A DNA stretch of 64,000 bases from Candidatus Dojkabacteria bacterium (GTDB lineage Bacteria; Patescibacteriota; Dojkabacteria; SC72), in assembly GCA_035271645.1 (NCBI GenBank), contig DATERJ010000012.1, positions 28,964 to 92,963 on the forward strand. Direction: 5' to 3'. This document shows positions 617 to 47,193 of the stretch, piece after piece. The notes beneath the pieces are model-generated. The model was not told the DNA's origin. It saw nothing but the letters and a program-made list of their open reading frames with translations, and did not search any database. Numbering within the stretch: the stretch's first letter is position 1; each line of letters opens with the position of its first letter. A program made the position numbers and the translations under genes.

Positions 617-775
617 CTACTTTTTATATGTACCACAATTAGCGCACTCAAAATGGCTTCTTTTTATTGCACCACATTTAGGGCATTTAGATACTCCTTT
701 TACCTCCAATGCGTTATGTGCTCTTCTTCTACCTTTTCGAGCTTTTGAAATTCTTCTTTTTGGTAATGCACCCAT
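617..775 (-). CDS. rpmF: 50S ribosomal protein L32
   Basis: Hand-translated 52-aa ORF (below the ORF-track cutoff): [52 protein letters not shown]. This is the L32 N-terminal motif PKRR.SK.R plus a Cys4 zinc ribbon. Stop is TAG at 617-619. Confidence 0.8.
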
Positions 776-834
776 TTTTGTTTAAACTATATATTAACTT
801 GAAGATTATATTGTATTATCTCCTCTTTTTCAAC

Positions 835-3546
835 TTATTGTATCCAACTTTCTTTAATTTCAATTTCATCTCCTGGTTTTATTGTCTGTTCAATGATTCC
901 TTTAGCAATATTTCCTTCAATGCTATCTTGAATGTATCTTTTCATTGGTCTTGCACCTAACCCAGGCTCGTTAGATTTGTTTGCAATCAACATTGGTATC
1001 TGGTCTGACCATTTGATTGTTATTTCTCTTTCAGCAAGTCTCTTAGCAACTTGGTTTAGTTCTAGTATGGCTATTTCTGTAAGATTCTTAATATCATGTG
1101 GTTCAAATACAATTATTGCATCATACCTATTTAAGAACTCTGGTCTAAATGATTGCCTTATCTCAAGTAATGCTCTTTCTTTTGCCTCTTCCCACATAGT
1201 GTTCTGTTCTGCAAGGGCATCAAGTAGGATCTTGCTTCCTACATTGCTTGTGCAGATAATTATGGCATTTGTAAAATCAACAGTCTCACCGTATGCACTT
1301 GTTAATCGTCCTTCATCTAACAACTGAAGAAGTAGATCTAAGATGTTTGGATGTGCTTTCTCAATCTCATCAAAGAGGACTACTGTATGTGGATTACTCT
1401 TTATCTTATCAACCAATGTAATTTGTGCTTGTCCTAATGTATCTCCTCCCTCAGAAGAACCTAGGAATCTGTTTATACTAGACACTTCTTGATATTCTGA
1501 CATATCAACCCTAATCATGTCATCTCTTCCGAAATATTCTTCTGCTACTACCTTTGCAATGTATGTTTTACCCACACCAGTTGGTCCAACAAAGAGGAAT
1601 GAACCAATTGGTTTGTTGGGGTTTCTAATATCAGCTCTGGCTCTCCTAAGAGCTTCTGAGATTGCAATGACAGCTTCATCTTGTCCAACAACTCTCTGCT
1701 TGATATTCTCTTCAAGCTTCATCATTTTGTTGCTTTCATCTTGGTCTATCTCTGTAATATTAATATTCTTCTGTAATGAAATTGTCTTAGAAACATGTTC
1801 TGAAGTGATCTTTTGTATTCCATTTGCTTGTGCCCATGAACATGTTGCCTCTATGGTTTGTACTGCACTACTTGGAAGTTTCCTTTCTTTAATATATCTC
1901 TGTGCTAACTCTACAGCTGAAACAAGTGCAGGGAATGTTATATAGCAGTTAAAGTTCTGCTCTAATGAGTCGACTTTGGTTTCTAGAATGTAGAGTGCAT
2001 CAGCTGCTGATATCTCACTTACTTCAATATTTGTAAAACTTTGTCGTAAAGACTCATTACTGTAAAAATATTTCTTGTAATCAGCATAGTTAATACTTCC
2101 CACTATTGGGAATTGGCTGTTGAGAATGAAGGGGAGCATAATACCAGCAATACTGTGTCCACTCTCCCCTGCTTTTCTAGGAATAATCTCTTGAATTTCA
2201 TCGATGTAAAGAATTACATTACCAGCATTAGCTAGCTCAGTCATTGATTTAATGATGACCTCTTCCATGTTTGATTGGCTTTGTGAATATGCAATTAGTT
2301 GGTTGATATCTAACTCAACAATCTTCTTGTCTCTTAATTGTATTGGTACATCTCCATGGTTGATTTTTTGAGCTACACCTAAGATGATGCTAGACTTACC
2401 TACTCCAGCCTCTCCTACTAGAAGAGCGTTCTTGTTAGATATCTTTCCAAGTGTAGATATCAATGTTTCAACTTCATCATCATGTCCAATACCAAAGACA
2501 TCATTTGATTTAGCAACGGCAAGATTTACTTCTTTGCTAAAATGACTTAACACAAATGTCCACCCATAGATCCACGAATTTCCAATGCCTCCTGTCCTAA
2601 AGTATGGGTAATCTGGATTTAATGGTCTAGATTTCTTGCTATCTCTGTAGTTCCAGTACTCTATGACCTCTCTAAAGATATCAATATTTATATTATTCTT
2701 TTGTAGAAGTTTTTCCAATGCTGGAGATATCTTAGTTATTGCTAAGAAAAGGTGTTCAGGCAGTATTTGGTCACTATTTGTAAGAAGAGCCTCTTCTAGT
2801 GCATATGTTTGTAGTGCTGTGATTGCGGAGATTGGGTAATTAGGGACATGTTCTGTTGTTATTCCTGCTTCATCTAAGGTTGTTGTGGTGAATGTTATAC
2901 CACTTCTTCTAACCAGCTGTTGAACTTCATAATTATTTGTCAAAAGGTCTTTGTAAAGGTTAAGAGTGTAGAGGTTTCCTTTTTGTGTAAAGTTTCCTAG
3001 GTAGTCGATTGCTTCATTTGAGATGTAATTAACGGTTTCCATCTTTGCATATCTTCCGAATTTGAACCCAACAGCTTTGATCTCATCAAAATCTTTTTGT
3101 GGTATATTCTTTATCTTAGGTAATTTAATTACCTTGCTTCGTTCATTGTAGAAGTCATGCCAGAGTAAGATTAGTGAAAAGACAGACACTCCAAAGAGAG
3201 AGTTGATAATTCCAGAGTTAAGAATTTTTAGGATAGTTGGGTAGTTTTCTAGGATGTTTAGGAATTTTAATATATATCCAGCAGCAATGATTAGCCCTGG
3301 GATTAGCAATATGGTTATTATTATGTTTTTTACTTCTTCAAATTTTTCATATTTCGGATTACTTGTTAGATAGTATTCCATCTGTGGATTTGTAATTGAG
3401 AAGAAGTGGTCTCTAGTGAGAAGAAAGAGAGAATGGTTATCATCTGTTGGAAGTGGATATTTTTTTTCAACAACAGAGAAGGAGTTTCTCTTTCTGTTAT
3501 GCATTCCAATTATTGTTTTGTATTTGCTTCCAAAGTCTATTGCCAT
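835..3546 (-). CDS. Clp/Hsp100 family double-ring AAA+ unfoldase with N-terminal transmembrane anchor (ClpA/ClpC/ClpB-like)
   Basis: 903 aa. Two hydrophobic helices near residues 95-150. One Clp_N-like repeat (ALEEALLTNSDQILPEHLFLAI). D1 Walker A GEAGVGKS. D2 VGQDEAV...GPTGVGKT, sensor TSNVGS and FRPEFLNR. Short inter-NBD linker with no long M-domain. No (I/L/V)G(F/L) ClpP-docking tripeptide between TSNVGS and FRPEFLNR. Confidence 0.85.
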   Translation of the reverse strand: MAIDFGSKYKTIIGMHNRKRNSFSVVEKKYPLPTDDNHSLFLLTRDHFFSITNPQMEYYLTSNPKYEKFEEVKNIIITILLIPGLIIAAGYILKFLNILENYPTILKILNSGIINSLFGVSVFSLILLWHDFYNERSKVIKLPKIKNIPQKDFDEIKAVGFKFGRYAKMETVNYISNEAIDYLGNFTQKGNLYTLNLYKDLLTNNYEVQQLVRRSGITFTTTTLDEAGITTEHVPNYPISAITALQTYALEEALLTNSDQILPEHLFLAITKISPALEKLLQKNNINIDIFREVIEYWNYRDSKKSRPLNPDYPYFRTGGIGNSWIYGWTFVLSHFSKEVNLAVAKSNDVFGIGHDDEVETLISTLGKISNKNALLVGEAGVGKSSIILGVAQKINHGDVPIQLRDKKIVELDINQLIAYSQSQSNMEEVIIKSMTELANAGNVILYIDEIQEIIPRKAGESGHSIAGIMLPFILNSQFPIVGSINYADYKKYFYSNESLRQSFTNIEVSEISAADALYILETKVDSLEQNFNCYITFPALVSAVELAQRYIKERKLPSSAVQTIEATCSWAQANGIQKITSEHVSKTISLQKNINITEIDQDESNKMMKLEENIKQRVVGQDEAVIAISEALRRARADIRNPNKPIGSFLFVGPTGVGKTYIAKVVAEEYFGRDDMIRVDMSEYQEVSSINRFLGSSEGGDTLGQAQITLVDKIKSNPHTVVLFDEIEKAHPNILDLLLQLLDEGRLTSAYGETVDFTNAIIICTSNVGSKILLDALAEQNTMWEEAKERALLEIRQSFRPEFLNRYDAIIVFEPHDIKNLTEIAILELNQVAKRLAEREITIKWSDQIPMLIANKSNEPGLGARPMKRYIQDSIEGNIAKGIIEQTIKPGDEIEIKESWIQ

Positions 3547-3548
3547 GT

Positions 3549-3950
3549 CTATTTCTTAATTAATGACATTATGATAAATGTGATAGTTGCGATTGGTAGG
3601 AGTAGCCAAGTTAGTATGAAGATTATGAAGAGAATCATAGCAAGTAAGTAGAAAGTGATTGCAATTGGTAGGTAGAGTATTTTAATTACAATTCCAAAGA
3701 TAAGGCCGAAGATAGTTCTGTCTCTGTGCCATGGGACAAAGAAATTTTTAAAAAGAAGCGAGATTGACAGATTATCATCGATTACGGTTGATAATCTCCC
3801 AAGTACTCTAAGATATCGTGATGGCATTTTTACATACCACCAGTTTAGAAAGTCTTGGATAAAGAAAAGGAAAATCTTGGAATATGAGTCTGTTTTAACA
3901 GTTTGTATTAGTTGTTGTCCGCTGTTATCTACGGTATTTTGTTGTTTCAT
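3549..3950 (-). CDS. small integral membrane protein (3 predicted TM helices), co-oriented and abutting the Clp unfoldase gene
   Basis: 133-aa ORF with hydrophobic segments (GLIFGIVIKILYLPIAITFYLLAMILFIIFILTWLLLPIATITFIIM). Its stop lies 2 nt upstream of the Clp start codon. Confidence 0.5.
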   Translation of the reverse strand: MKQQNTVDNSGQQLIQTVKTDSYSKIFLFFIQDFLNWWYVKMPSRYLRVLGRLSTVIDDNLSISLLFKNFFVPWHRDRTIFGLIFGIVIKILYLPIAITFYLLAMILFIIFILTWLLLPIATITFIIMSLIKK

Positions 3951-4062
3951 TTTGGGCAGTTTTTTCTCTACTTACAGTTTATCGCAAGTAGATATCGCCT
4001 GTCAATTTTTTCTTTTATGATAGGAGTTAATGTGGTTTTTATTTGTCTGTTTTTCTTCGGAT

Positions 4063-4497
4063 TTACTCTACCTCGACTACCCCGTTTTCTAAAATAGTGA
4101 CAGTCATGTCATCTTGAACGTAGTTTAAGAACTCGTCTCCCAAAGAATCGATTGTTGGCATACTGTTATCTGTCCATACATCTGCTAAGATAGCTCCTGC
4201 TGCTGCTAGTGAGTCAATGGGTTTGGAAAACAGTAATGCACCAGGACTACAGTTCGTTACCGCTGCATTGTACAAGACCATACCTCCTGTTGTTGAACCA
4301 ATGGTTTGTGGTAAGCATAGGGCAACTCCTACAGTTGATTTGCCATACAGATCTTTGTTGTTTTGATCTGTACAGATATTCTTTCCCTCCTTACAATCTT
4401 TATACGATGCCAATGTATTAAAACCAGTATGTGATACTAAGGCTTTTAGCTTACAAGTACCTGGTACTACAACTCTTCCTTTAAATGTTTTTTTCAT
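4063..4497 (-). CDS. aconitase X (AcnX) small subunit-like swivel-domain protein (DUF126 family)
   Basis: 144 aa. Gly-rich core (TIGSTTGGMVLYNAAVTNCSPGALLFSKPIDSLAAAGAILADV) resembles DUF126. Immediately follows the DUF521-like large-subunit gene. Confidence 0.6.
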   Translation of the reverse strand: MKKTFKGRVVVPGTCKLKALVSHTGFNTLASYKDCKEGKNICTDQNNKDLYGKSTVGVALCLPQTIGSTTGGMVLYNAAVTNCSPGALLFSKPIDSLAAAGAILADVWTDNSMPTIDSLGDEFLNYVQDDMTVTILENGVVEVE

Positions 4498-4509
4498 TTT
4501 TCTTATCTT

Positions 4510-5769
4510 TTATATAATTTGTTCTAAAATCTCATCATCAGAATAATATTTAGATGAAGTATAGGTTCTTAATTTGTTTGAATTTGTAATAACTGGCATT
4601 TTTGCACATAGTGGATTATTCATATACATTAAAGGACATATATAGCTTGTAACTACACCCATCTCTTTTAACTTCTTAGCATTCTCTGTATTCTCAAATT
4701 CTTTCAAAACAGCTGGAGCAGAAGTAAAGACAGTTTTAATTCTAATCTTTTTCTTTCCTTTTGCTTTTAGAGCTTCTTCTAACTTCTCTGTCCAGTCATT
4801 AAGTTGTTTTAGACTCATATGTGGACAGCCCATGAAGCATAGTTTTGGTTTAGCATCAGGATTTTTCCAAATGCATGGATAGCTTTTCTTTACCCTTTCT
4901 AATTCAGCATCATCTACTATGTAGACTTTAGCGTTTTCATTAATCAAGTTTTCTTTTAATTCAACTGCTTCTGGGGTTAGATTTTCAACATGGTATAGTC
5001 CAACTGAGCCATTAGATGCCGTAGCTGCACCGAAGTCTTTTAAGTATGATAATGTGTCTTCATCTAAAGTGGTTCCTAACCATTTATCTAAACCTTTAAT
5101 ATATGGAACATCTTCTAAAACTTTCATCCCTATCGCAGAACCTAGTAGTTGTGCTTCTGGTTTCTTTGTTGTCTTTACTTCAACAATCCAGTTAGCTTTT
5201 CTTCCTTCATCAGTAAGAAGACCAAAGTAAGGGACATAGCCAACGATTGATCCAAACATTTCAATAATGCCAGAGTTACGATTGCATCTTGCTCCCAATA
5301 CAGAGTTTGCATAGTTTACAGCACTTGATTCTGCCCAAGAGAGAATGTCTCCTTTTTCGGGTATGTTACCTACTTCTGGAAGATATGCTGCACAGGTAAA
5401 AGCATCGTCTGAGAGAAGTCCTATCTTTTTAAGTTGATCTTCATATCGCTTTTGTGGTCCATACATGATTTTGAAAACAAGGTCTTGGAGGATATTCTTA
5501 GGTACATTTGGATCTAGTGGTCTAGGGTCTGCTGAGAATTTTTGTTTTGACTCAACTTCTGCATCAAGAAGTACATCCATTAAGTCAAAGACTCCTTTTA
5601 CAACTATGACTCCAAAACTAGTTACAATATGTCCGTATTTGCTAGTAACAGGAACCATTTTAGTAGCACCAAAGGTTTCTCCGTACATGACTAATGTCTT
5701 CATTATCTTAGCCATTACTTCACCTTGCTGACCATCTAAAATTGCTTGTTGTTCTTTTGTTAATTCCAT
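4510..5769 (-). CDS. aconitase X (AcnX) large/catalytic subunit-like protein (DUF521 family hydro-lyase)
   Basis: 419 aa. N-terminus MELTKEQQAILDGQQGEVMAKIMKTLVMYGE matches the DUF521 start pattern. Several conserved Cys/Ser positions. Paired with the small-subunit gene. Confidence 0.65.
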   Translation of the reverse strand: MELTKEQQAILDGQQGEVMAKIMKTLVMYGETFGATKMVPVTSKYGHIVTSFGVIVVKGVFDLMDVLLDAEVESKQKFSADPRPLDPNVPKNILQDLVFKIMYGPQKRYEDQLKKIGLLSDDAFTCAAYLPEVGNIPEKGDILSWAESSAVNYANSVLGARCNRNSGIIEMFGSIVGYVPYFGLLTDEGRKANWIVEVKTTKKPEAQLLGSAIGMKVLEDVPYIKGLDKWLGTTLDEDTLSYLKDFGAATASNGSVGLYHVENLTPEAVELKENLINENAKVYIVDDAELERVKKSYPCIWKNPDAKPKLCFMGCPHMSLKQLNDWTEKLEEALKAKGKKKIRIKTVFTSAPAVLKEFENTENAKKLKEMGVVTSYICPLMYMNNPLCAKMPVITNSNKLRTYTSSKYYSDDEILEQII

Positions 5770-5781
5770 ATATTTGTTTTA

Positions 5782-7842
5782 CTAAATTTTCATTCCAACA
5801 TCCCACGCTCTCCATGTGACTGTTCTTAAGTTACCAACCTCATTGCAATCACCTACGAGATGGACTTTTCGATTTGTTTCAGGGATTGTTTTTGGATTGT
5901 AGCCTACTGACATAATGACAGTATCTGCTTCTATGAATATTTCTTCTCCATCTTTGTTCATTATCTTAACTCCATCCTTTGTAATCTCTTGAACAGCAGA
6001 TTCTAAGTGAACCTCAACATTATTTAGTGCAAAGAACTCTCTGAGATATGAACTGTTTGCTAAACAAACTCCTCTTACAGCTATTAAATCATTCCTTGCT
6101 TCAACGATAATAGGTATTTTTCCTTTTTGGTATAGGTCTAATGCAATCTCACAACCGGTTAAACCTCCACCAATGATTATAACTTTTTCACCAGCTTTGG
6201 AGTTGTCTTTCAAATAGTCACATGCTTCAATTGTATTCTCAATTCCTTTTATCTTTAATCTCTTTGGTGTTGCCCCTATTGCAACAATTACTTCATCTGC
6301 ATCTATTTCATCAATATTAGTCACTTCCGTATTAAACTTAATTTCAATTTGTAAATCTTGCATCTCTTTTTCGTACCAATCAAGCAAGGCTCTCTCTTTA
6401 TCTTTAAAACCAGGTGTTGAAGCATATTTAAATACTCCTCCTACCCTATCACTTTTTTCATAAATTGTTGCCTTGTGTCCTCGTAGTGTTAAGAGTCTTG
6501 CAACTTCCATTCCCCCTATTCCTGCACCAATAACTGCAATGTGTTTAGGATTATTTGTTTTTACAATCTTGTATTTCTTAGATTGCATAGTAGTTGGGTT
6601 TAGTGCACATCTAGCCATACCTGCATTATCTGAAAGTGCTTGGTCATTCCCTACTCCTTTGTAGTGAGCCATATTAAAACATGCATTATGACAACCAATA
6701 CATGGCTTTATACTTTCCTCATCACCATTCATGAGTTTAGTAATCCACTCTGGATCAGTGAGGAATTGTCTAGCAACTCCCATTGCATCAATTCTGCCCT
6801 CTTTTATCGATCCTGCTCCTGCTGATGGTGTCATTCTACCTGCACAAACTACTGGAATATCTACATACTTCCTAATCTCTTCAACATCTTTAAGGTTACA
6901 GTTGTAAGGCATATACCCTGGAGGATGAGCCCAGTACCAAGCATCATATGTTCCATTGTCACAATTTAACATGTCATATCCTGCATCTTGTAGATATTTT
7001 GCAGCACGTTTTGATTCCTCCATATCTCTTCCTACTTCAGTATATTCTTCACCTGGGAGTGCTCCTTGTCCGAATCCTTTTGTCTTAGAAACGACCGAAT
7101 ATCTGAGTGATACTGGAAAATCTTTTCCACACTCTTTTTTAATTGCTTGCACTATTTCAATAGGAAATCTATATCTATTCTCAAATGAACCTCCATACTT
7201 ATCATCTCTAAAGTTTGTATATTTCATTGTAAATTGATCAAGAAGATAGCCTTCATGAACAGCATGAATTTCAATACCGTCTACTCCTGCCTCTTGGCAA
7301 AGTTTAGCTGTTTTAGCAAAACCTTCAATTATCTCCTGTATTTCTTCAACTGTCATAGGTCTAGACATTACAGAATCATCCCAACGATTTGGTGTTGCAC
7401 TTGCACTAGCTGTTAGGTAGTCAACATCTAGAACTGGTTTGAGAAGTGTTCCTAAGAATTTGTTGTGATGAGCTTCAATCATTAGGTGGTTAATTGCTAG
7501 ACTTCTTCCAAAACCTGCTGTTAATTGGATGAATAGTTTAGAACCTGTTTTGTGGAATTCATCCATGAACTCTTTAAGTTCTCGGAATTTGCCTTTACCT
7601 TGGTAGAGCCATTTTCCCCAAAGGATATCACGAATTGGAGCAATACCAGGGAGTATTAGTCCTACATTATTCCTTGCTCTTTCTAAAATGAAATTGGCTG
7701 CCTCTTTGTCAAAATGATTACCCAATGGTTCCATCCATCCAAAGAGTGATGTACCACCCATAGATGTCATAACAATCCTGTTTTTGATTTCAAGATTACC
7801 AATCTTCCATGGGGTGAATAGTGGTTTGTACTCTTGTTTCAT
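5782..7842 (-). CDS. Old Yellow Enzyme-family NAD(P)H:flavin oxidoreductase with 4Fe-4S motif and C-terminal FAD/NAD(P)-binding domain (2-enoate reductase / 2,4-dienoyl-CoA reductase-like)
   Basis: 686 aa. N-terminal OYE TIM-barrel features (IKNRIVMTSMG, HAVHEGYLLDQF). Cys cluster CIGCHNACFNMAHY...C. Rossmann motif HIAVIGAGIGGMEVA and a second IIIGGGLTGCE. Confidence 0.8.
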   Translation of the reverse strand: MKQEYKPLFTPWKIGNLEIKNRIVMTSMGGTSLFGWMEPLGNHFDKEAANFILERARNNVGLILPGIAPIRDILWGKWLYQGKGKFRELKEFMDEFHKTGSKLFIQLTAGFGRSLAINHLMIEAHHNKFLGTLLKPVLDVDYLTASASATPNRWDDSVMSRPMTVEEIQEIIEGFAKTAKLCQEAGVDGIEIHAVHEGYLLDQFTMKYTNFRDDKYGGSFENRYRFPIEIVQAIKKECGKDFPVSLRYSVVSKTKGFGQGALPGEEYTEVGRDMEESKRAAKYLQDAGYDMLNCDNGTYDAWYWAHPPGYMPYNCNLKDVEEIRKYVDIPVVCAGRMTPSAGAGSIKEGRIDAMGVARQFLTDPEWITKLMNGDEESIKPCIGCHNACFNMAHYKGVGNDQALSDNAGMARCALNPTTMQSKKYKIVKTNNPKHIAVIGAGIGGMEVARLLTLRGHKATIYEKSDRVGGVFKYASTPGFKDKERALLDWYEKEMQDLQIEIKFNTEVTNIDEIDADEVIVAIGATPKRLKIKGIENTIEACDYLKDNSKAGEKVIIIGGGLTGCEIALDLYQKGKIPIIVEARNDLIAVRGVCLANSSYLREFFALNNVEVHLESAVQEITKDGVKIMNKDGEEIFIEADTVIMSVGYNPKTIPETNRKVHLVGDCNEVGNLRTVTWRAWDVGMKI

Positions 7843-13305: not shown

Positions 13306-14268
13306 CTATTGCTTTTTGGCCTTCTTTGTTTCTAATCGTTCAATCCTTTTGTCCCAGTCACCATTCCATCCCTGAGACTTTGCTTGTTTAACCAATTCAA
13401 TTGCCTCATCATACTTACCCTGTTTATCAAGAATAATAGCTAACTGAGTATATCCAGGATGAGTTGGCAGTCCTCCAGAATAGCTCTTTAGAAAAGCTTC
13501 TGCAGCTTTTGGGGATAAGTCTATCTGTTTTTGAGCAGATTGTATAGCGATATCCAACGCCTTCGGGTCTATATCACGAAGTTTGTAATACAATCCCATT
13601 TTTGCAGCCCAGAAGAAGTGTTGATCTAAAGTATCCCCCTTCTCTACATATTCTTCCGCCTTGTTAATAAGTTTAAATGCTAAAGTTCTATCTCTTGGGT
13701 TATCAAACCAGCTAGATAAAGATGAGAGATGAAAAGATGCAGATTTTTCTGTTAGTTTTGACAGCCCATTCTTTAATCCTGATGATGCTCCTAGTGGTTG
13801 GTACATTTCTTCCATGTGATTTTGTTCTTCTTTTGTAAATTCTTTTTCAAACCACTCTGCTAGATTTAGATTAGGACTGTTGTCTTCAATATCTGTATAA
13901 GAGGAGACAACTTCCTGTTCTGTCTGATTCTCTTGATTCCTACTTTTCTTTTTTTGTAGAAAGTAATAAATAATAATAGCTATTCCAACAGGAGGTAAAA
14001 TAATTAGCAAAAAAAGTCCTATTAGGATAGTACAGATGGATGAGTTATTTCCATTTGTTTGTCTCGTTTTTTTGTTGGTTTTGAATAAATCTCCTAATCC
14101 AAATGTGGTTTTATTATAAACTTTGTTATATACGTATCTTTTAGGATTTGTAATCCAACCTGTTCCGCGTGGCATTCGTAGACCTAAGGAGTTTTTAATT
14201 TTTCTTTTTATAGAAAATCTTGCTGACAAACTCTTTTTTAAAGATGGCTTTCTTAATCCGAATTTCAT
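13306..14268 (-). CDS. hypothetical membrane-anchored protein with C-terminal helical-repeat (TPR-like) region
   Basis: 320 aa. Basic N-terminus (MKFGLRKPSLKKSLSARFSIKRK...GWITNPKRYVYNKVYNKTT), one TM (ICTILIGLFLLIILPPVGIAIIIYYFL) and an alpha-helical C-terminus. Confidence 0.5.
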   Translation of the reverse strand: MKFGLRKPSLKKSLSARFSIKRKIKNSLGLRMPRGTGWITNPKRYVYNKVYNKTTFGLGDLFKTNKKTRQTNGNNSSICTILIGLFLLIILPPVGIAIIIYYFLQKKKSRNQENQTEQEVVSSYTDIEDNSPNLNLAEWFEKEFTKEEQNHMEEMYQPLGASSGLKNGLSKLTEKSASFHLSSLSSWFDNPRDRTLAFKLINKAEEYVEKGDTLDQHFFWAAKMGLYYKLRDIDPKALDIAIQSAQKQIDLSPKAAEAFLKSYSGGLPTHPGYTQLAIILDKQGKYDEAIELVKQAKSQGWNGDWDKRIERLETKKAKKQ

Positions 14269-14284
14269 ATCTGTATAACTCTAA

Positions 14285-14361
14285 TGGTGGGCGATACAGG
14301 AATTGAACCTGTGACCTTCACAATGTCAATGTGACGCTCTAGCCAGCTGAGCTAATCGCCC
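14285..14361 (-). tRNA. tRNA-Val (anticodon GAC), CCA encoded
   Basis: Minus-strand sequence GGGCGATTAGCTCAGCTGGCTAGAGCGTCACATTGACATTGTGAAGGTCACAGGTTCAATTCCTGTATCGCCCACCA. 7-bp acceptor, D arm GCTC/GAGC, anticodon loop TTGACAT, T arm ACAGG/CCTGT with TTCAATT loop. Confidence 0.85.
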
Positions 14362-14384
14362 ATCATAATGAACAGAATTCTACC

Positions 14385-14894
14385 CTATTTCTTTAAGTTT
14401 TTCCAATTATATATATTTCTTAATTCTCTAATATCTTTCTTCTTACTTTTCTCTGCGTTGTTGTAAAGGGTTTTAAGATACTCCGGAGATTCAAGACCAA
14501 GTGATTCAACCAAACAAGAAGTCATGTTTTTACCTATCTCAACAGCTGAAATAGCAGCAACCCAATCATCTCTTTCTATGAAATATACATCCACATTTTT
14601 GATATCATAGGCACCAATACGATTAGAGATTAAAACCTTACTGTCGATATCAACATCTGTTACTTTTCTAAATCCCCTTATCTTTTTCTTGTGGTTCTGT
14701 CCATGAACCATCTCTTCTAAGCTATACTCAATATCATCTAAGGTTAAATCGAAAAGGTCAGTTGTAAGTAGTGTCCCTTCTTCTCCATGTTCTAAAACAC
14801 TATCTATGTAACGAGTTAATCTCTCAACCTCATTTTGCTTGATGGCATCTCTGAGCTCATCTCCAGTAGTACATTTAGTATCTGTGAAATCCAT
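14385..14894 (-). CDS. hypothetical acidic protein (169 aa), translationally coupled to clpP
   Basis: ORF shares nucleotide 14894 with the clpP stop. No motif recognised. Sits where clpX usually lies. Confidence 0.5.
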   Translation of the reverse strand: MDFTDTKCTTGDELRDAIKQNEVERLTRYIDSVLEHGEEGTLLTTDLFDLTLDDIEYSLEEMVHGQNHKKKIRGFRKVTDVDIDSKVLISNRIGAYDIKNVDVYFIERDDWVAAISAVEIGKNMTSCLVESLGLESPEYLKTLYNNAEKSKKKDIRELRNIYNWKNLKK

Positions 14895-15490
14895 TACCTT
14901 TTTCTAATTATTTTATCTACCAAACCATAGGCCTTAGCCTCTTTGGCAGTAAAATATTTATCTCTATCAGCATCCTTGGTAATCTGAGCAACACTCTGAC
15001 CTGTCTTCTCTGAAAGCATCTTGTAAAGCTGTTCTCTAATTTTCATAATCTCCTCTGCTTCAATTGCAATATCACTAGCCTGTCCTTTTGCTCCACCAAG
15101 AGGTTGGTGGATATGAATCTTACTATTAGGTAATGCAAATCTTTTTCCCTTTGCACCGTTAATGAGAATCATTGTTCCCATGGAAGCTGCTAAACCAACT
15201 GCTGTAGTTGAAACATCTGGTTTAATGTAGTTCATTGTATCGATAATTGCCATACCTGCTGTAATGTAACCACCAGGGGAGTTGATAAACATCTGGATAT
15301 CAGCATTAGGGTCTTCTTTCTCTAAAAACAACAATTGAGCAACAATGGTATTAGCCATATTCGTCTCTATCTCATCACTAACAAACACAATTCTGTCTTT
15401 CAATAGTCTGGAATATATGTCATAGGCTCTCTCACCACCTTTTTCTTTTTCTATGACTGTTGGAATTAATCCCATATTTTTCTTTTTCAT
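14894..15490 (-). CDS. clpP: ATP-dependent Clp protease proteolytic subunit
   Basis: 198 aa. [17 protein letters not shown], catalytic Ser in GLAASMG, His in IHQPLGG. Confidence 0.9.
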
Positions 15491-15493
15491 AAT

Positions 15494-16522
15494 TTACTTT
15501 TTACCTAAAACCTCCTCAATGAAGGTCTTGAATGCTAACTCTTTTTCGCTTACTCTTCTTACATACTCTCTCCACTCTTCATTCTCATATATACTCTCAT
15601 CTGTACCTTCTGGAGCACTTTTCTTAATGGTTTCAATCTTCTCATTCAATTCCTTCTCTCCAATCTTAATATCTCTTTCTTTAGCATAGAGCTTAAGGAA
15701 TACATCACTCTCAAGAGCTTCTTTAGCATCCTTCTGCCATAGTTCTCTCATCTTCTCCATTGTTATGTTGTTAGCTTGAAGGAAATTCTCAATCTTTTCA
15801 TCATCATGACCCATATCATGTACGAAGGAATGTTCTCTTTCATGGGCTTCATAATCAATTGCTGGTTGTGGAATCTTAATATTGGAGAGTTTAATTGCTT
15901 GTGCAAATGCATCATCTTCCTGTCTCCTCTGCTCATACATACCCTTCTGCTTTTCCAAAAGGTCCTTAACATATTTTTTCAAGTCATCCAATGTCTTTAC
16001 ATCTTTAATATTCATTAACTTTGCAATCTCCTTTGCCCAAGCATCATCCATCTTCTTAGCTTTTGTTTTGTTACCCTTAAACACATTCTCTAATGCATCA
16101 TTAACTTCTTTCTCTGTTACCTCAACCTTCTCTTTCTTTACCTTAATCTTCTTCATATTACCTAATGTAAACTCAGGCATAATGGGAATCTCAACAACTA
16201 AAACTAAGTCCTCATCTTTTGAGAAGTCTGGGAAACTTTTGTATGTAGGTGGTGCAATTGGAGAGAGGTTTTCTTTTTGAAGTGCAGTTGTAAGGTACAT
16301 TGGAACCATTTTTTCAAATGTCTGTACCTTGATAGTATTCTTTACCTCAGGCTCTATCATATCTGTTGGAACTTTCCCTTTTCTAAACCCATCTAGCTTT
16401 GTATTACTTAACTCTTGTTCTAGAACAGCTTTGTAACTTTTGTTAAAAGCATCCTTGGGGATAGTGATAGTAAATTCGACTACGCTATCGCTAATATCTT
16501 TTCTTGTATGAAAATCTTTCAT
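15494..16522 (-). CDS. tig: trigger factor, short form lacking the PPIase domain
   Basis: 342 aa. N-terminal ribosome-binding signature GFRKGKVP. tig-clpP synteny. No FKBP-type segment. Confidence 0.75.
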   Translation of the reverse strand: MKDFHTRKDISDSVVEFTITIPKDAFNKSYKAVLEQELSNTKLDGFRKGKVPTDMIEPEVKNTIKVQTFEKMVPMYLTTALQKENLSPIAPPTYKSFPDFSKDEDLVLVVEIPIMPEFTLGNMKKIKVKKEKVEVTEKEVNDALENVFKGNKTKAKKMDDAWAKEIAKLMNIKDVKTLDDLKKYVKDLLEKQKGMYEQRRQEDDAFAQAIKLSNIKIPQPAIDYEAHEREHSFVHDMGHDDEKIENFLQANNITMEKMRELWQKDAKEALESDVFLKLYAKERDIKIGEKELNEKIETIKKSAPEGTDESIYENEEWREYVRRVSEKELAFKTFIEEVLGKK

Positions 16523-16552: not shown

Positions 16553-17278
16553 CTACACTTTTTGATACAATTTGTCTAGCTTGGCAATGACAACAAGTCT
16601 CTTTTCTGAAGTCCATAGAGGAGTACAGGTTATTAAGGTTAATCGATAGTCATCACTCTCTTTGACAACGGATATATCATTAGCTTCTACAATCTTAGTT
16701 TCTGTAACAATGTATGTATATTCTCCTTCGGTATGTTTAACTTTAATTTCATCTCCTACCGTAACCTTATCTAAATTGTAAAAAGTGTCTTTTGCAGGTG
16801 GAAGATTCATGAATCTGTGCCCAATTACAACAAAATTACCTTTATGCCCTGGGTATGTAGAGCTTGGGAAATGCCAGAATCCCCTATCCATTGTGTATGC
16901 ATCTGTACCCTGAAAAACATTTCCTTCAATCAGAACATTTGGGATTGAGATTGAAGTATTGAGTTCTTCTAAAATCTTCTTGTCGAGAATGATGTTAGCT
17001 CCTTTGATAGATTCTTCTATCGAACCTTCAACAAATTCTTCCTTTAGAAACTTATCTTTTGTTGGTGAGAGAGTTGTTAGTAAGTTAATTGTAGTATCTT
17101 TTGCAAGTGAGTAGATGTTTAGAGAGTTCTTTCTTAATGCAATATCGTTGTATTGTGGATATATGATGAAAAGGGATATTGGAATCAGGACCAATAGTAT
17201 TAGTAAAAGAGTTGTAAGTATCTGTATTGTTTTTTTCATTTCTTCCCCTATTCTACTAAATTTCCTAAACAGTTGCAT
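16553..17278 (-). CDS. sortase (transpeptidase); likely true start at the internal Met near 17239
   Basis: N-terminal TM, catalytic His in GNFVVIGHR, active-site TLITC, conserved Arg downstream. GGGGAAG SD precedes the internal ATG at about 17239. Confidence 0.8.
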   Translation of the reverse strand: MQLFRKFSRIGEEMKKTIQILTTLLLILLVLIPISLFIIYPQYNDIALRKNSLNIYSLAKDTTINLLTTLSPTKDKFLKEEFVEGSIEESIKGANIILDKKILEELNTSISIPNVLIEGNVFQGTDAYTMDRGFWHFPSSTYPGHKGNFVVIGHRFMNLPPAKDTFYNLDKVTVGDEIKVKHTEGEYTYIVTETKIVEANDISVVKESDDYRLTLITCTPLWTSEKRLVVIAKLDKLYQKV

Positions 17279-25412: not shown

Positions 25413-28397
25413 ATGAAATATAGTGTAGGTTTTTCAGACAGTAGAAGAAGAAATGTAAGGAGTGCGGGAGGGAAGAGCTCTTTGGGACAGTCGTTTAGGT
25501 CTGGGAAGTTTGGGTTTGATAAGTATAAGAATGTAAAGAAGTATGCTTCTAGGAATTTGGGGAGTAAAACGGCTAGACATAGCAGTAAAAAGAGACCTAA
25601 AGACAAGAAAAAGCTTAAGAAGATATTCTTTGTGGGTTTAGGAGTTCTGTTCTTCATGGGGTGTATAGGTTTAGTAGTTTTAGGAATCTATTTAAAGAAA
25701 TTAGGTGATTCACTCCCATCTCCAAATGAGCTAATTTCAAGAAGTTCTGATCAGAGTACACAGATTTTAGATAGGAAGGGTAATGTCCTCTATACCGTAT
25801 ATGGTGATGAGAACAGAGAATTTGTTTCTATTGATAAGATTCCAGAACATACAAGAAAAGCTGTGTTAGCTGCAGAGGATGCGGAGTTCTATCAGCATAA
25901 AGGGATTGATTTGGTTGGTATTGCCAGAGCAGTAATTCAAAATATTAGAGGAAGAAGAGTTGTTAGTGGTGCTAGTACCCTTACTCAGCAGTTGGTAAAA
26001 AAGACATTGCTCTATGATATCTTGGGTGAAGAGGCTAATGAGAGAACAATTGCAAGAAAGGTGAAAGAGGTGCTAATAACAATGCAGGTGGAACAAACAT
26101 TCACAAAGGATGAGATCTTACAGATGTATATGAATGAAATTCCTTTGGGAGGTGTGAACTATGGATTTCAAGCTGCGGCACATTCATATTTTGGTAAAGA
26201 TGTAAGCGAGCTTACTCTTGCAGAGAGTGCTATGTTGGCCGGTATTATTCAAGCTCCTGGTGTGTACTCTCCTCTTTATGGTAGAGATGCAGAGAGTGGT
26301 AAAGTAAGGCAGAAGTATGTTCTAGACCAATTAGAGTCAAAGGAGCGATTGTTTGGTATTTCTAAAGAGGAGATAGATAAAGCACGAGAGGAAGAGTTAG
26401 TATACAAGCCTTCTAGGATTGATATCAAAGCGCCACATTTTGTCTTTTATGTCAAAGCAGAACTAGAGGAAGAATTTGGCGTGGATGTTGTAGAGAAAGG
26501 TGGACTTAAGGTAACGACAACTCTAGACCCTACTCTTCAGAGTATTGCGGAGGAGGAGATTACTAAGGGGGTTGAGAGAGCTGCGAAGCGATACAATGCT
26601 AATAATGGTGCTATGGTTGTAATTAACCCTAAGAATGGGCAGTTACTTTCTATGGTTGGTTCAGTTGACTACTGGAAGACTGATGACCCTAGGGTTGATG
26701 GGAATGTAAATATTACGACTAGTTATAGACAGATGGGTTCTGCAGTTAAGCCATTCGTGTATTTGAGCTCGATTATAAACAGAGGGACTGGTCCATGGAC
26801 AGTAACCCCTGATATCAACAATGTTGCTTTTGGAAGGTACAAACCAACAAACTGGGATAATAGGTATTATGGTTTAATAACTTCTAGGAAGGCATTAGTT
26901 GAGTCAAGAAATATTCCTGCGGTGTATACATTGCAAATGGGTGGGATTGACAATTTCCTTCAGCTTATGCAGAGGCTTGGTGTGTCTGGGATGGAGAATA
27001 AGGCAGATTATGGTTTAAGTATTGCTTTGGGTTCGGCAGAGATGCGAATGACTGAATTTGCGAATGCTTTTGCCACTTTAGCTAATGGTGGTGTTAAACA
27101 TGATTTGGTGTCCATTTTGAAGGTGGAGAATGCTAAGGGAGAGGTGCTTAAGGAGTACAAGGATAATGAAGGTCAGAGGGTTGTAGATGAAAAGGAGGCT
27201 TATCTTGTCAACTGGATGATTTGTGATTTGCAGAGATTTAATGACAGACCTGATAATAGATATTATACAGTCAAAGGAAGGAAGCTTTGTGGAAAGACAG
27301 GTACAACAAATGGGCCTAAGGATCTTTTAACCTTCCTTTACAATCAGAGTATCGTTGTAGGTGTTTGGAATGGGAATAACAACAATATTGTAATGCCAAG
27401 AGCATGGGCCACAACAGTCTCTCTGCCTCTTGCACATTCTTTCTTGCAGAGAGTAATTGATTCGTATGGAGAGTTCAACTTTAATAGACCTGCTGGTATT
27501 ATGACTACAAGTGTTTGTAAAGATACTGGAGCAACTCCTGCTGATGGAGTTGAGTGTAATAAGGAGGCTTCAATATATATCTCTGGTAGGTCTCCACAAG
27601 TTGATGATAGAAAGGCAATTGAGGTGTGTACTGCTGATGGAACGATTCCTACAAACTTAGAGGTTGCTAAACAGTATGGTTTAACAACAACTAAGATACT
27701 TTTGTCAACAAAACTAGAGAATCCAATGCAGGAAGATGCGTATCGTGCCTACCTTAATGCTAGTGAGAAATATCTTTTTGAGATGCCAGAGAGTAAGGTT
27801 TGTTTACCTCCATTAGGTCCAGATGGTGCACCTTTAGTAGATATTGCTTCTCCTACAGCAGGACAAGCTTTTTCGACAGGACAGAATATTGAGATAAAAG
27901 GAAGTGTAGTAGCACAGGGAGGTTTGAGTGCTTTTAGTATAACGGTTGGTGGGCAGATAGTTCCTGGAGTTGATCAGAGTTCTGTGAGGGCTGATGGGAC
28001 TTACATAATCAACTATGTTGTTCCTGGTAGTATGAATGGTAGTAAGGCGATTGTTGTTAGTGCAAAGGATATTGCTGGGAAAGTCGGGAGTAAGAGTGTT
28101 AATATTACCTTGGGTAACTCTGTTCCATCATCTTCACTTGAAATTATTCAACCAACCGATGGTAGTACTGTAGCTACTAATACACAGATAATTGTTGAAA
28201 TTGTTGGAGAGGCGATATCAGGGGTAAGTATAACAATTGGAAATGGAGGTATATCCACAGCACCTCAGAAGATTGGGGAGAAAAGGTGGGCAATTACGAT
28301 TCCTGCAACAATGGCTCCAGGTCCGTATAAAATCAAAGCTTCCGCCCTTGTTGATGGTAAGACATTGGAGAAATCAATAAATGTTAAAGTTAAATAA
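25413..28397 (+). CDS. class A penicillin-binding protein (bifunctional glycosyltransferase/transpeptidase, PBP1A-like) with C-terminal Ig-like domains
   Basis: 994 aa. N-terminal TM. GT51 motifs EDAEFYQHKGID and GASTLTQQLVK. Transpeptidase SAVKPF (SxxK), SRN and KTGT. About 250-aa beta-rich C-terminal extension. Confidence 0.85.
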   Translation: MKYSVGFSDSRRRNVRSAGGKSSLGQSFRSGKFGFDKYKNVKKYASRNLGSKTARHSSKKRPKDKKKLKKIFFVGLGVLFFMGCIGLVVLGIYLKKLGDSLPSPNELISRSSDQSTQILDRKGNVLYTVYGDENREFVSIDKIPEHTRKAVLAAEDAEFYQHKGIDLVGIARAVIQNIRGRRVVSGASTLTQQLVKKTLLYDILGEEANERTIARKVKEVLITMQVEQTFTKDEILQMYMNEIPLGGVNYGFQAAAHSYFGKDVSELTLAESAMLAGIIQAPGVYSPLYGRDAESGKVRQKYVLDQLESKERLFGISKEEIDKAREEELVYKPSRIDIKAPHFVFYVKAELEEEFGVDVVEKGGLKVTTTLDPTLQSIAEEEITKGVERAAKRYNANNGAMVVINPKNGQLLSMVGSVDYWKTDDPRVDGNVNITTSYRQMGSAVKPFVYLSSIINRGTGPWTVTPDINNVAFGRYKPTNWDNRYYGLITSRKALVESRNIPAVYTLQMGGIDNFLQLMQRLGVSGMENKADYGLSIALGSAEMRMTEFANAFATLANGGVKHDLVSILKVENAKGEVLKEYKDNEGQRVVDEKEAYLVNWMICDLQRFNDRPDNRYYTVKGRKLCGKTGTTNGPKDLLTFLYNQSIVVGVWNGNNNNIVMPRAWATTVSLPLAHSFLQRVIDSYGEFNFNRPAGIMTTSVCKDTGATPADGVECNKEASIYISGRSPQVDDRKAIEVCTADGTIPTNLEVAKQYGLTTTKILLSTKLENPMQEDAYRAYLNASEKYLFEMPESKVCLPPLGPDGAPLVDIASPTAGQAFSTGQNIEIKGSVVAQGGLSAFSITVGGQIVPGVDQSSVRADGTYIINYVVPGSMNGSKAIVVSAKDIAGKVGSKSVNITLGNSVPSSSLEIIQPTDGSTVATNTQIIVEIVGEAISGVSITIGNGGISTAPQKIGEKRWAITIPATMAPGPYKIKASALVDGKTLEKSINVKVK

Positions 28398-42715: not shown

Positions 42716-43435
42716 TTAGTTAAATACTTCCTGATAATCCTCTGCACTTAATATGCCTAACAATCTATATATATCATCTCGTGTGGTTATTTTAATGTTT
42801 CGTCTGTGACATTCAACTGTCTTTATCTTTTTACCAAAGGACTTCATAAGAGTACAATTGTCAATGATTCCTTCGTAGTTAGGGTTAACCTTTCTTACCT
42901 TTTTGTGAGCTTCAAAAACTTCTTTGAGAAAGAAGGTCTGAGGAGCTTTTGCAACAAAACATGTGTTTCTGTCTATTACATCTTTCACTCTGAGGTTCTT
43001 ATCGAGTATGACAGGAGTTTCATAGAGTTTTGAAACAGTTACCGCAGCACCATGTTTTCTACAAGTTTTGATGTTTTTGCTAATTAGTTCTTGGTCGATA
43101 AGGGGTCTGACACCATCATGGATTAAGACTACATCATCATCGTGAGCATTTTTAGAAGCTTCCCGTAGACCAATGTAAATCGAGTCCATTCCAGTTTTTC
43201 CTCCTGTGAAGACTTTTATTTTTGTAAGTTTGTTTTCTTTAATTAAATCTTTCATGTATTCCTCATAACCGGATTTTATTACTAAAAATATCTCATCTAT
43301 TTCAGGGTGGCATACAAAATTGTTAAGTGTATGGATAATTATTTGTTTACCTCTATATTTAATAAATTGCTTTGGTTTTTCGTGTTTCATTCTCTCGCCT
43401 ACTCCACCTGCAAAAATGACTGCTTTGTTTTTCAT
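42716..43435 (-). CDS. IspD/TarI-family sugar/polyol-phosphate cytidylyltransferase
   Basis: 239 aa. AGGVGERM...KQF and VLIHDGVRP motifs. Confidence 0.8.
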   Translation of the reverse strand: MKNKAVIFAGGVGERMKHEKPKQFIKYRGKQIIIHTLNNFVCHPEIDEIFLVIKSGYEEYMKDLIKENKLTKIKVFTGGKTGMDSIYIGLREASKNAHDDDVVLIHDGVRPLIDQELISKNIKTCRKHGAAVTVSKLYETPVILDKNLRVKDVIDRNTCFVAKAPQTFFLKEVFEAHKKVRKVNPNYEGIIDNCTLMKSFGKKIKTVECHRRNIKITTRDDIYRLLGILSAEDYQEVFN

Positions 43436-44556
43436 GTTATTTTCCCTTCTTTTAAAATAAATTTAACTAACTTCTCATTAGCATTATCGATGTTTACAAC
43501 ATACTTTTTCCTCTTGTTCTGATAGAAAGTTAAATCTTCCTTCTGAATCTTTGAGTTGATTCTCTTTTGTAACTCTTTTCTATCCTTAAATACGTATCCT
43601 TTATATTCTTTCTCAATATCTATTGTCAAACCTCTATCTTCTACATATTGGTTTAAATCAGGGACATACAAAAATACGACAATATCTCTAACCATTGCAT
43701 CATATATAACACAAGAGTAATCACTGATTAATTTATCTGAAACAAACAAGAAATCGAAGGTAGTGTGTTCTTGATCATAAATCACTCTATTGTTCTCCTT
43801 TGTAAGATTTTTGATTTTGATTCGATCCTTCTCATCTAGTGGGTGAAGACTCAGTATTAAATTATGTTTCGAAAAATCAACAATAGAGAGTATGTCTTTT
43901 ATATTTTCTAATACGAGATTGTTATTTTTGAATGTGGGTGCAAATGTAATGTTTTCCCTCTCTTTTAATACTGGATATTTTTGATAAAGTTCATCTTGGA
44001 TCTCCTTTTCATATTTTTTGTTGTTTAGTAAATCTACTCTAGGGAGAGAATAGATATGAACATAACTACTGTCATATCCAAATCCTTCTGCTAAATCTTT
44101 AGCGTATTCTTTGGAGGATGCTATTATATAATCATATTGTTTATGCATATTTAAGGAGTGTGCAATGTTTTCACCTCTTCCATCTTTCTTCCCAATAATT
44201 TGCTTTCCAAATTTTTTCATTGTTCCCATGGAATGCCATATCTGAAAGACTTTTAACTCTTCTTTATGTGTAAAATTACTTACAGCTAGGGAATAACCAT
44301 CAATAATTACAACTTTTGAATTGGCAATATTAAACAGGTCTTTTAGAAGTACTAAGTAGTAGGATGGGGAGTATTTTACTTTATGACAAGAAACATAAGT
44401 CTCTATTCCTTTTTCTTTAAGGCTTGCTATCAATAATTGGAAGTCTAAACCTGGAGTATTACCTTGTCTTGATAGGAAACATACCTTGTTTCTAATCTTC
44501 CTCTTTTTAAAGAAGTGATATATGAAAGAGGTAAGTTTTATAAGAATTTTAATCAC
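43432..44556 (-). CDS. CDP-glycerol/ribitol:poly(polyol phosphate) phosphotransferase (TagF/TagB/TarL family)
   Basis: 374 aa. Glyphos_transf-like pattern (IWHSMGTMKKFG, FAPTFK). Confidence 0.7.
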   Translation of the reverse strand: MIKILIKLTSFIYHFFKKRKIRNKVCFLSRQGNTPGLDFQLLIASLKEKGIETYVSCHKVKYSPSYYLVLLKDLFNIANSKVVIIDGYSLAVSNFTHKEELKVFQIWHSMGTMKKFGKQIIGKKDGRGENIAHSLNMHKQYDYIIASSKEYAKDLAEGFGYDSSYVHIYSLPRVDLLNNKKYEKEIQDELYQKYPVLKERENITFAPTFKNNNLVLENIKDILSIVDFSKHNLILSLHPLDEKDRIKIKNLTKENNRVIYDQEHTTFDFLFVSDKLISDYSCVIYDAMVRDIVVFLYVPDLNQYVEDRGLTIDIEKEYKGYVFKDRKELQKRINSKIQKEDLTFYQNKRKKYVVNIDNANEKLVKFILKEGKIT

Positions 44557-46960: not shown

Positions 46961-47074
46961 GTGGTTTTCTTGTTTAAAGTTAAGTACTTTAAATTTTTTA
47001 TAATTTATTTCCTTTGAGGGGTACTGGATTATATATATTTATGTATTTATATTCAAGATTTTTCACCCACGATG

Positions 47075-47103: not shown

Positions 47104-47193
47104 TCATCTGTCAATTCAAACGAACTGACGCTCTTTTACAACTTACTTCAAAGAAAACAAACCATCCGTAACAAAAAGAAAGGAAAGGAAAAA

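Follow-up and report, generated by a model that had tools for sequence, protein, structure and literature searches.

Introduction

To our knowledge, class I Clp/Hsp100 proteins have been described as soluble enzymes that either dock ClpP or use a middle (M) domain with Hsp70, and that work via aromatic pore loops. ClpB and Hsp104 couple to DnaK/Hsp70 through the M-domain, and translocation from the first AAA+ ring (D1) to the second (D2) is established for ClpA, ClpB and Hsp104. Here we describe a two-gene locus of Candidatus Dojkabacteria (WS6), an uncultured lineage of Patescibacteria, that departs from this picture. It lies in a 64,000-nucleotide (nt) stretch of DNA, called the window below (GenBank assembly GCA_035271645.1, contig DATERJ010000012.1, positions 28,964 to 92,963 of the forward strand). 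One gene encodes a 903-amino-acid (aa) Clp/Hsp100-like double-ring ATPase that is predicted to be anchored in the membrane. The other, directly upstream, encodes a 133-aa membrane protein.

Aromatic pore loops are conserved in Clp/HSP100 proteins and are critical for processive unfolding (PMC5425593). Membrane-associated Torsins, which rely on dedicated transmembrane cofactors, are set apart by having none (PMC5425593). Like Torsin, which acts with LAP1/LULL1 in the eukaryotic endoplasmic reticulum (ER) and nuclear envelope, the Dojkabacteria ATPase has a AAA+ module related to Clp/Hsp100 D2, has no aromatic pore loops and is predicted to associate with the membrane through an N-terminal hydrophobic segment. 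Torsin however is luminal and single-ring, and its Arg finger is supplied by the cofactor, whereas the protein described here is double-ring with a D2 Arg finger of its own. Torsin cofactors also have a AAA+-like fold, whilst the small Dojkabacteria protein is predicted to be a helical hairpin without one. The Pfam Torsin model scored the 903-aa protein at 23.2 bits, under its cut-off of 27.

The closest precedent in kind is ClpI of Actinomycetota, a lineage-restricted third class of double-ring Clp that was defined bioinformatically (PMC10149685). ClpI shares with our family a divergent N-terminal region, and some of its subclasses lack the LGF motif for ClpP (PMC10149685). It differs in keeping the M-domain and the unfolding and translocation motifs, and neither a membrane anchor nor a small partner is described for it there (PMC10149685). 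In the literature searched on Dojkabacteria Clp proteins, membrane-anchored Hsp100 and AAA+ unfoldases of Patescibacteria we found no membrane-spanning class I Clp and no description of this family.

For this family we establish how the domains are arranged, which motifs are kept or lost, the predicted membrane anchor, the linkage of the two genes and the restriction to one lineage. As to its role, we tentatively favour, at somewhat less than even confidence, a membrane machine of two components that is independent of ClpP, occurs only in Candidatus Dojkabacteria and acts as an ATP-driven remodeller or switch rather than as a processive threading unfoldase.

Results

The 903-aa protein is a class I Hsp100 with a predicted membrane hairpin

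Both genes are on the minus strand and were taken from a six-frame open reading frame (ORF) list:

835..3546, minus strand: Clp/Hsp100-like double-ring AAA+ protein, 903 aa
3549..3950, minus strand: small membrane protein, 133 aa

The junction between the small gene and the Clp-like gene reads ...AAA TAG AC ATG GCA..., a gap of 2 nt. These coordinates, sizes and spacing are exactly those given in the original prediction, a model's reading of the DNA letters.

Pfam assigned AAA to D1, followed by AAA_lid_9 (aa 514-609), AAA_2 (aa 645-810, E 4.6e-49) and ClpB_D2-small (aa 820-897). The Pfam match to Clp_N was marginal (aa 249-296, 20.7 bits, exactly at the cut-off). The protein has the two Walker A/B modules, AAA_lid_9 and D2-small of a class I double-ring protein, together with the double Clp_N repeat of a Clp N-terminal domain. 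Its nearest solved structures by sequence are ClpC (the best), ClpB and ClpA. NCBIfam returned ClpB, ClpA, ClpK, ClpG and ClpV, all far under their curated equivalog cut-offs. Judged from sequence, fold and domain order assign it as a ClpB/ClpC-derived class I Hsp100. From the N- to the C-terminus the order is beta domain, transmembrane (TM) hairpin, full Clp N-domain, aromatic linker, D1 and D2. The elements ahead of D1 are listed below, with hydropathy as maxima on the Kyte-Doolittle scale in a 19-residue window (classical threshold 1.6) and helices from AlphaFold2 (AF2):

3391..3519, minus strand: N-terminal cytoplasmic four-stranded beta domain, aa ~10-52, from AF2 and conservation
3259..3327, minus strand: TM1, aa 74-96, with a conserved P83-G84; hydropathy 2.65, within AF2 helix 53-95
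3157..3225, minus strand: TM2, aa 108-130, ending in a near-invariant L128-W129-H130; hydropathy 1.81, AF2 helix 112-137
2635..3099, minus strand: complete Clp N-domain fold, aa ~150-304
2533..2610, minus strand: aromatic/Gly-rich motif Y-x-[KR]-x-GGIxxxWIYG[YW]TFxLxxFS, aa 313-338, from entropy and alignment

The two hydrophobic N-terminal helices already seen in the original prediction were borne out. Outside TM1 and TM2 the protein stays below 1.6, and the maxima of the E. coli controls were 1.12 (ClpA) and 1.07 (ClpB). A set of 120 homologues at 57-96% identity shares both segments; the maxima have medians of 2.42 (TM1) and 1.86 (TM2), against 1.33 for the remainder, and TM1 was found in all distant relatives. 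The N-terminal flank of TM1 is basic, and the 15-residue loop between the helices (aa 97-111) is acidic and variable (2.10 bits). Lys and Arg residues number on average 3.39 in the 15 positions ahead of TM1, drop to 0.66 in the loop and return to 2.86 behind TM2. These flanks fit the positive-inside rule and place the hairpin with both ends inside, the orientation that the ATPase rings need. The ATPase is thus predicted to be membrane-anchored via an N-terminal TM hairpin in an N-in/C-in topology. The near-invariant P83-G84 and L128-W129-H130 within the TM helices suggest specific helix packing rather than a generic tether.

The AF2 model of aa 1-345, built from 27 sequences, had a mean predicted local distance difference test (pLDDT) score of 82 and a predicted template modelling (pTM) score of 0.74. 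It contains the two long helices (53-95 and 112-137) and a helical domain at 150-304. The beta domain in front of them has strands at aa 12-17, 22-25, 38-43 and 47-50 (pLDDT 84-93). Its residues G14, F41 and T44 are near-invariant and the domain is specific to the family; fold searches with it brought up only Clp N-domain matches and none for the beta domain itself. A start downstream of the hydrophobic region, which would have removed the anchor, is contradicted by the conservation of aa 1-140, by the ATG that 76 of 78 loci have at the aligned start position, and by the abutting upstream stop codon. The true start lies upstream of the TM region.

Between the N-domain and D1, the WIYGYTF motif stands in place of a flexible and normally unconserved linker, at the entrance to D1. 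It is more conserved than the N-domain (entropy of 0.90 bits against 1.67) and is kept in distant relatives; AF2 confidence is low there.

Catalytic residues are retained in D2 whilst both pore loops have lost their tyrosines

The 903-aa protein was aligned with E. coli ClpA and ClpB from MG1655, which located the following elements:

1717..2499, minus strand: D1 AAA+ module, aa 350-610, with intact Walker A (GEAGVGKS) and Walker B (ILYIDE)
2266..2292, minus strand: equivalent of the D1 pore-1 loop, aa 419-427, without tyrosine; 57 distinct sequences in 63, 1.79 bits
838..1716, minus strand: D2 AAA+ module and D2-small, aa 611-903, from Pfam and motif alignment
1423..1458, minus strand: equivalent of the D2 pore-1 loop, aa 697-708, GYVG lost; 61 distinct sequences in 63, 2.19 bits
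1150..1236, minus strand: segment from sensor-1 to the D2 Arg finger, site of the ClpP-docking loop in ClpA/ClpC/ClpX; of ClpB-like length

In D2 every catalytic motif is intact across 63 species: Walker A, Walker B, sensor-1 TSN, the Arg finger NR and sensor-2 GARP. The D1 Arg fingers (RR, in ClpB ERRF) are instead swapped for Q-S/T within a conserved SLRQSF. The conserved Arg of this motif sits one position upstream of the D1 finger site.

The pore loops are altered as well. An aromatic residue at the column of ClpB Y251 (D1 KYR) or Y653 (D2 GYVG) was found in 0 of 64 members, and only a loose [ILV]-[LFMY]-G-Q remains of the D2 loop. Nothing in the rings varies more than these two loops, whose entropies (listed above) compare with 0.74 and 0.85 bits for the D1 and D2 large domains. 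The original prediction had called the two nucleotide-binding domains canonical. This holds for the Walker motifs of both rings and for the catalytic residues of D2, but not for the pore tyrosines or the D1 Arg fingers.

A long ClpB-type M-domain is absent, as had been predicted: about 120 ClpB columns are gapped in every family member, and there is no insertion relative to ClpA. At the C-terminus (838..852, minus strand), 62 of 63 species and all 120 homologues share the ending E-x-W-[ILV]-x-COOH, in which Trp always occupies position -3. We considered this end as an HbYX-like docking tail and set it aside, since it aligns to the ClpB 'DRIV'. The conserved strand corresponds to the final beta-strand of D2-small in ClpB and is therefore probably structural.

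The ClpP-docking tripeptide is missing

The claim that the protein lacks a ClpP-docking tripeptide was upheld. Between sensor-1 and the D2 Arg finger, [ILVM]G[FLM] occurred in 0 of 64 species representatives and in 1 of 121 close homologues; the same pattern found IGL in ClpA, the positive control, and nothing in ClpB. An I-G-[MY]-H near the N-terminus was considered as a displaced docking tripeptide and rejected, as it is part of a beta-strand close to the membrane, which is the wrong side of the ring.

The missing loop is meaningful because clpP is present in the same window (14894..15490, minus strand), straight after tig (15494..16522). The usual neighbour after tig-clpP is clpX. Here clpP is followed (region 13306..16522, minus strand) by ORFs of 169 and 320 aa, the latter with one hydrophobic segment; neither is clpX and neither has a Pfam or PADLOC match. 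clpP also occurs without an adjoining clpX in two related loci (L090 and L091), where tig-clpP lies 4-5 kb upstream of the pair.

The small protein is more likely to span the membrane twice than three times

The 133-aa protein has a disordered N-terminus, a helix at aa 23-61, a loop and a 52-residue hydrophobic stretch (aa 80-131). Its invariant motifs are FLxWWYxxMP in the first helix, DDNLSxSLL and FFxPWHRD in the loop, LYLPIA and WLLLP, and K90, P95, Y101, Y108, W115 and P119 are conserved within the hydrophobic stretch. On the Kyte-Doolittle scale, TM-grade hydrophobicity is limited to aa 80-131. A hand average over aa 22-40 was ~0.45, and the family mean over helix 23-61 was 0.36. AF2 (pLDDT 87) likewise gave two helices, at 23-61 and 80-132. 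The three TM segments of the original prediction are thus not borne out. Hydropathy and model make two segments more likely, joined by a very tight turn on the outer side in the region of the conserved Y101/Y108.

The protein belongs to no Pfam, NCBIfam or PADLOC family, fold searches with it gave nothing meaningful (best E 6.5), and a profile search revealed no paralogue in the window. Its homologues fall into 74 clusters when searched with a single sequence and 236 with a profile, the named sources being Dojkabacteria, Patescibacteria or unclassified bacterium. The order of its motifs (WY..P...FSxxLLxxxFxPW[RH]R...TM) may resemble that of hypothetical proteins in other lineages of the candidate phyla radiation (CPR).

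The two genes are linked throughout Dojkabacteria

One genome per GTDB species was scanned with a profile of the small protein, giving 86 relatives, of which 80 loci were kept. The Clp-like gene follows directly in all 78 loci that have at least 300 nt downstream; the remaining 2 are contig ends. The two genes are -10 to +18 nt apart in 77 of the 78, mostly -1 to +3 nt. These short distances are consistent with translational coupling, and the close pairing proposed from the single locus is thus a general feature. The record titles of these loci are mostly Dojkabacteria or WS6, or bins auto-labelled otherwise.

The module formed by aa 1-345 was searched exhaustively with HMMER against 1.84 billion representatives of clusters at 50% identity. 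It returned 33 matches, which indicates that the N-terminal module is confined to this clade, and about 13 of them were full-length proteins at 22-41% identity. Among six distant relatives inspected, a homologous small gene abuts upstream in five, and the sixth and most divergent has an unrecognisable 124-aa ORF in its place.

The downstream side of the pair is conserved. In all eight related loci for which gene tables were examined it carries L32, NusB, RNase III, S16 and KhpA, 60 of the GTDB loci contain NusB, and the same block follows in 5 of the 6 loci of distant relatives. The upstream neighbour differs between aconitase X (AcnX) genes here and Dus on the opposite strand in other Dojkabacteria, so that the upstream boundary of the module is variable.

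We also compared rates of divergence in a mirror-tree analysis. With NusB and the AAA+ core controlled for, divergence of the small protein correlated with that of Clp aa 1-150 at a partial r of 0.35, compared with 0.07 in the NusB control. As the pairs lack independence, we take this as no more than a weak hint that the partner tracks the Clp N-terminal region beyond phylogeny.

Many GTDB records with a Dojkabacteria-type locus are titled 'uncultured Candidatus Saccharibacteria' (L008-L010, L017, L059 and others), and two belong to bins named Lachnospiraceae and Caldisericia. Such titles are probably automatic labels or mis-binned contigs.

PADLOC matched the ATPase to generic AAA+ models only and had no match to the small protein. 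We considered an anti-phage defence system and rejected it, as there is no specific PADLOC match for both genes and the synteny is of a housekeeping kind.

Some relatives have lost the catalytic residues of D2

Four divergent relatives (P0200, P0202, P0209 and P0222, from loci L088, L090, L091 and L092) lack the D2 Walker B Glu, the Arg finger and sensor-2, and some also lack D1 motifs. All four retain the length of the protein and the TM module. A recognisable small partner adjoins P0200, P0202 and P0209. Synteny with L32-NusB was seen for P0202, P0209 and P0222, whilst the contig of P0200 ends with a gene on the opposite strand. On their motifs, these proteins look like pseudo-ATPase versions of the Clp-like protein. 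That D2-dead relatives keep the membrane module suggests that part of the family's role is independent of ATP hydrolysis or ATP-driven threading.

The family differs from described Clp and membrane AAA+ proteins

With ClpB/Hsp104 the family shares the double AAA+ ring, the Clp N-domain, D2-small, the intact D2 catalytic motifs, the ClpB-like length of the segment from sensor-1 to the Arg finger and the lack of a ClpP loop. It differs in having no M-domain and no pore tyrosines, in the replaced D1 Arg fingers, and in the addition of an N-terminal beta domain, a TM hairpin and an obligate small membrane partner. The ClpB equivalog TIGR03346 scored 472.5 bits against a cut-off of 1232.1. ClpA/ClpC/ClpE are similar in their ClpA-like length without an M-domain insertion; the ClpA model matches in one continuous stretch, and ClpC gives the best sequence matches in the PDB. 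Yet the family lacks their IGL/VGF docking loop and their pore tyrosines and is predicted to be membrane-anchored, and the ClpA equivalog TIGR02639 reached 425.2 bits against a cut-off of 993.15. ClpV/TssH fits no better. TIGR03345 scored 365 against a cut-off of 885, and the surrounding genes (L32, NusB, RNase III, S16, Dus and AcnX) include none for type VI secretion.

Other membrane-associated AAA+ machines resemble the family in arrangement. In FtsH, YME1 and Msp1/ATAD1 an N-terminal TM anchor likewise sets the AAA+ entry face at the membrane. These are however single-ring proteins of the classical AAA clade with aromatic pore loops, and FtsH and YME1 also carry an M41 peptidase. Pfam found no FtsH-type M41 zinc-peptidase domain in the 903-aa protein, whose architecture is that of a double-ring Clp. 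Plasmodium HSP101, of the Plasmodium translocon of exported proteins (PTEX), is a ClpB-type Hsp100 that has no ClpP loop, sits at a membrane and has dedicated membrane partners. It differs in not spanning the membrane, in retaining pore tyrosines and M-domain, and in docking the EXP2 pore by its D2 face for export.

On sequence grounds, the family belongs to the Clp/Hsp100 superfamily yet lacks what defines ClpB, ClpA/C/E/X, ClpV, Torsin or FtsH. The motif evidence leaves the database label 'ATP-dependent Clp protease ATP-binding subunit ClpA/ClpC' unsupported.

Neighbouring genes and other features of the window

The surroundings of the pair contain the following elements, read from the sequence or matched to promoter consensus only:

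3976..4005, minus strand: promoter-like TTGACA-18-TAAACT, consensus match only, within the 112-nt spacer upstream of the small gene
805..833, minus strand: promoter-like TTGAAA-17-TATAAT preceding L32, 11/12, the best sigma-70-like match of the region
617..775, minus strand: rpmF (L32, 52 aa), first gene of the downstream block L32-nusB-rnc-rpsP-khpA

Promoter-like hexamer matches in the region were no more numerous than in shuffled sequence. The match before L32 suggests that the ribosomal/NusB block may have its own promoter. At 52 aa, rpmF falls under the 60-aa ORF threshold; it sits between the Clp-like gene and nusB. Upstream of the pair (4063..7842, minus strand) lie the genes of a two-subunit AcnX (large subunit 4510..5769, swivel 4063..4497) and a 686-aa ORF (5782..7842, minus strand) that, judged by eye, is apparently a reductase.

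Elsewhere in the window there is a 458-aa SPFH/Band-7 protein (47014..48390, plus strand); no FtsH was seen in the window. SPFH/Band-7 proteins scaffold the membrane AAA+ protease FtsH in other bacteria. The window also carries envelope genes of Gram-positive type, namely two CDP-glycerol glycerophosphotransferases (teichoic-acid type), a sortase, a class A penicillin-binding protein (PBP) with Big domains and a class B PBP (43432..46960, minus; 16553..17278, minus; 25413..28397, plus; 57302..59158, minus).

Discussion

The original prediction proposed a membrane-tethered, ClpP-independent Clp unfoldase acting in extraction or disaggregation. Its Clp ancestry, anchor and absence of M-domain and ClpP loop stand. 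The unfoldase and extraction label is doubtful, because the pore-1 aromatics are absent, the D1 Arg fingers are non-canonical and D2-dead relatives exist. With both aromatic pore-1 loops gone and the loops drifting, a remodeller or switch is likelier than processive threading. In such a machine the protein would form a hexamer, as assumed from its family membership, with the face made by the N-domain and D1 directly beneath the membrane and 12 TM helices holding the ring. The co-translated 133-aa protein would most likely be bound through membrane-embedded and juxtamembrane elements. D2, which has every catalytic residue, would be the motor, whilst D1, binding nucleotide without canonical trans Arg fingers, would probably serve as an assembly or regulatory ring. 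The complex may act on the partner itself or on clients close to the membrane, in a way comparable to that of Torsin, p97-D1 or NSF-D2, and its substrates would not be passed to ClpP.

Several points weigh against this remodeller or switch. The interaction with the small partner is drawn from gene linkage, and the TM topology from hydropathy, charge bias and AF2 helices. A polypeptide might still be held by the semi-conserved aliphatic [ILV]-[LFMY]-G that remains in the D2 loop and by the conserved WIYGYTF linker. A full N-domain and a membrane-facing D1 entrance are as expected of a dislocase. Strong purifying selection on D2 in the main clade implies that ATP turnover matters there.

A second possibility, in line with the original prediction, is a processive, ClpP-independent dislocase or disaggregase of membrane proteins, similar to Msp1 or to FtsH minus its protease, with the small protein as adaptor or substrate receptor. 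Clients would enter the membrane-facing D1 ring and be pulled out into the cytosol. The N-terminal anchor does turn the conventional entry face towards the membrane, the N-domain is complete, D2 is fully catalytic, there is no ClpP loop, and a loose aliphatic-hydrophobic-Gly remnant in D2 is matched by an aromatic linker at the pore entrance. Yet none of the 64 species has either pore-loop aromatic, and nowhere in the rings is constraint weaker than in these loops, whereas all dislocases known to us (FtsH, Msp1 and Cdc48 D2) keep aromatic pore loops. The loss of the canonical D1 Arg fingers and the persistence of catalytically dead relatives, most with the partner or the synteny, argue in the same direction, and we regard a dislocase as possible but rather unlikely. 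A general chaperone or disaggregase that replaces ClpB/ClpC in this lineage and is merely tethered to the membrane, the small gene being an unrelated neighbour or an anchor helper, seems improbable. Its best matches are indeed ClpC and ClpB, it sits in a housekeeping block (L32, NusB, RNase III, S16), and in reduced CPR genomes a single Hsp100 may fill several roles. Against this, it has neither the M-domain that ClpB/Hsp104 need for DnaK/Hsp70 coupling nor pore tyrosines, residues inside the TM helices are conserved, and linkage in 78 of 78 loci at distances suited to translational coupling speaks against an unrelated small gene.

A membrane-bound Clp protease that feeds ClpP by an unconventional contact is very unlikely. 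It would make sense of the clpP gene straight after tig with no clpX adjoining, of tig-clpP at 4-5 kb from the pair in two relatives, and of the fixed C-terminus in 62 of 63 species. But the docking tripeptide is found in 0 of 64 species representatives and its segment is ClpB-like in length, the C-terminal strand is probably structural, given its alignment with the last strand of ClpB D2-small, and clpX may simply be elsewhere in the genome. Hardly credible is an artefact, with translation truly starting further downstream or with the hydrophobic helices packed inside a soluble domain. Only the general caveat on topology prediction speaks for it. The first 140 residues are conserved over 120 homologues and 63 species behind an ATG (76 of 78 loci) that abuts the upstream stop, their hydropathy is TM-grade and not seen in ClpA or ClpB, and no soluble domain is big enough to bury a 23-residue apolar helix.

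A bolder version of the family's role is speculative and, in our view, quite unlikely. In it the pair would be a new kind of bacterial membrane AAA+ machine, in which an Hsp100 entry face is fused to a collar of 12-24 TM helices made of the hairpins and the partner, and which works as an ERAD-like (ER-associated degradation) dislocase or as a counterpart of Torsin and its cofactor. As a dislocase it would be a retrotranslocase of the ERAD kind, gripping hydrophobic segments with non-aromatic loops and the WIYGYTF linker. As a switch it would be the first bacterial counterpart of Torsin-cofactor pairs, remodelling a membrane assembly, and the dead relatives may then have a structural role like that of FtsHi or LAP1.

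The family departs from the norms of class I in several respects together: it is predicted to span the membrane, lacks the M-domain, the ClpP loop and the pore tyrosines, and has an obligate partner. The pair is a conserved gene set in a housekeeping operon context throughout a whole CPR lineage. If active, it would widen the known repertoire of the Hsp100 scaffold and provide a bacterial model of AAA+ proteins that, like the Torsins, depend on cofactors and do not thread. If it is a dislocase, it would represent a new route of membrane-protein quality control in ultra-small bacteria.

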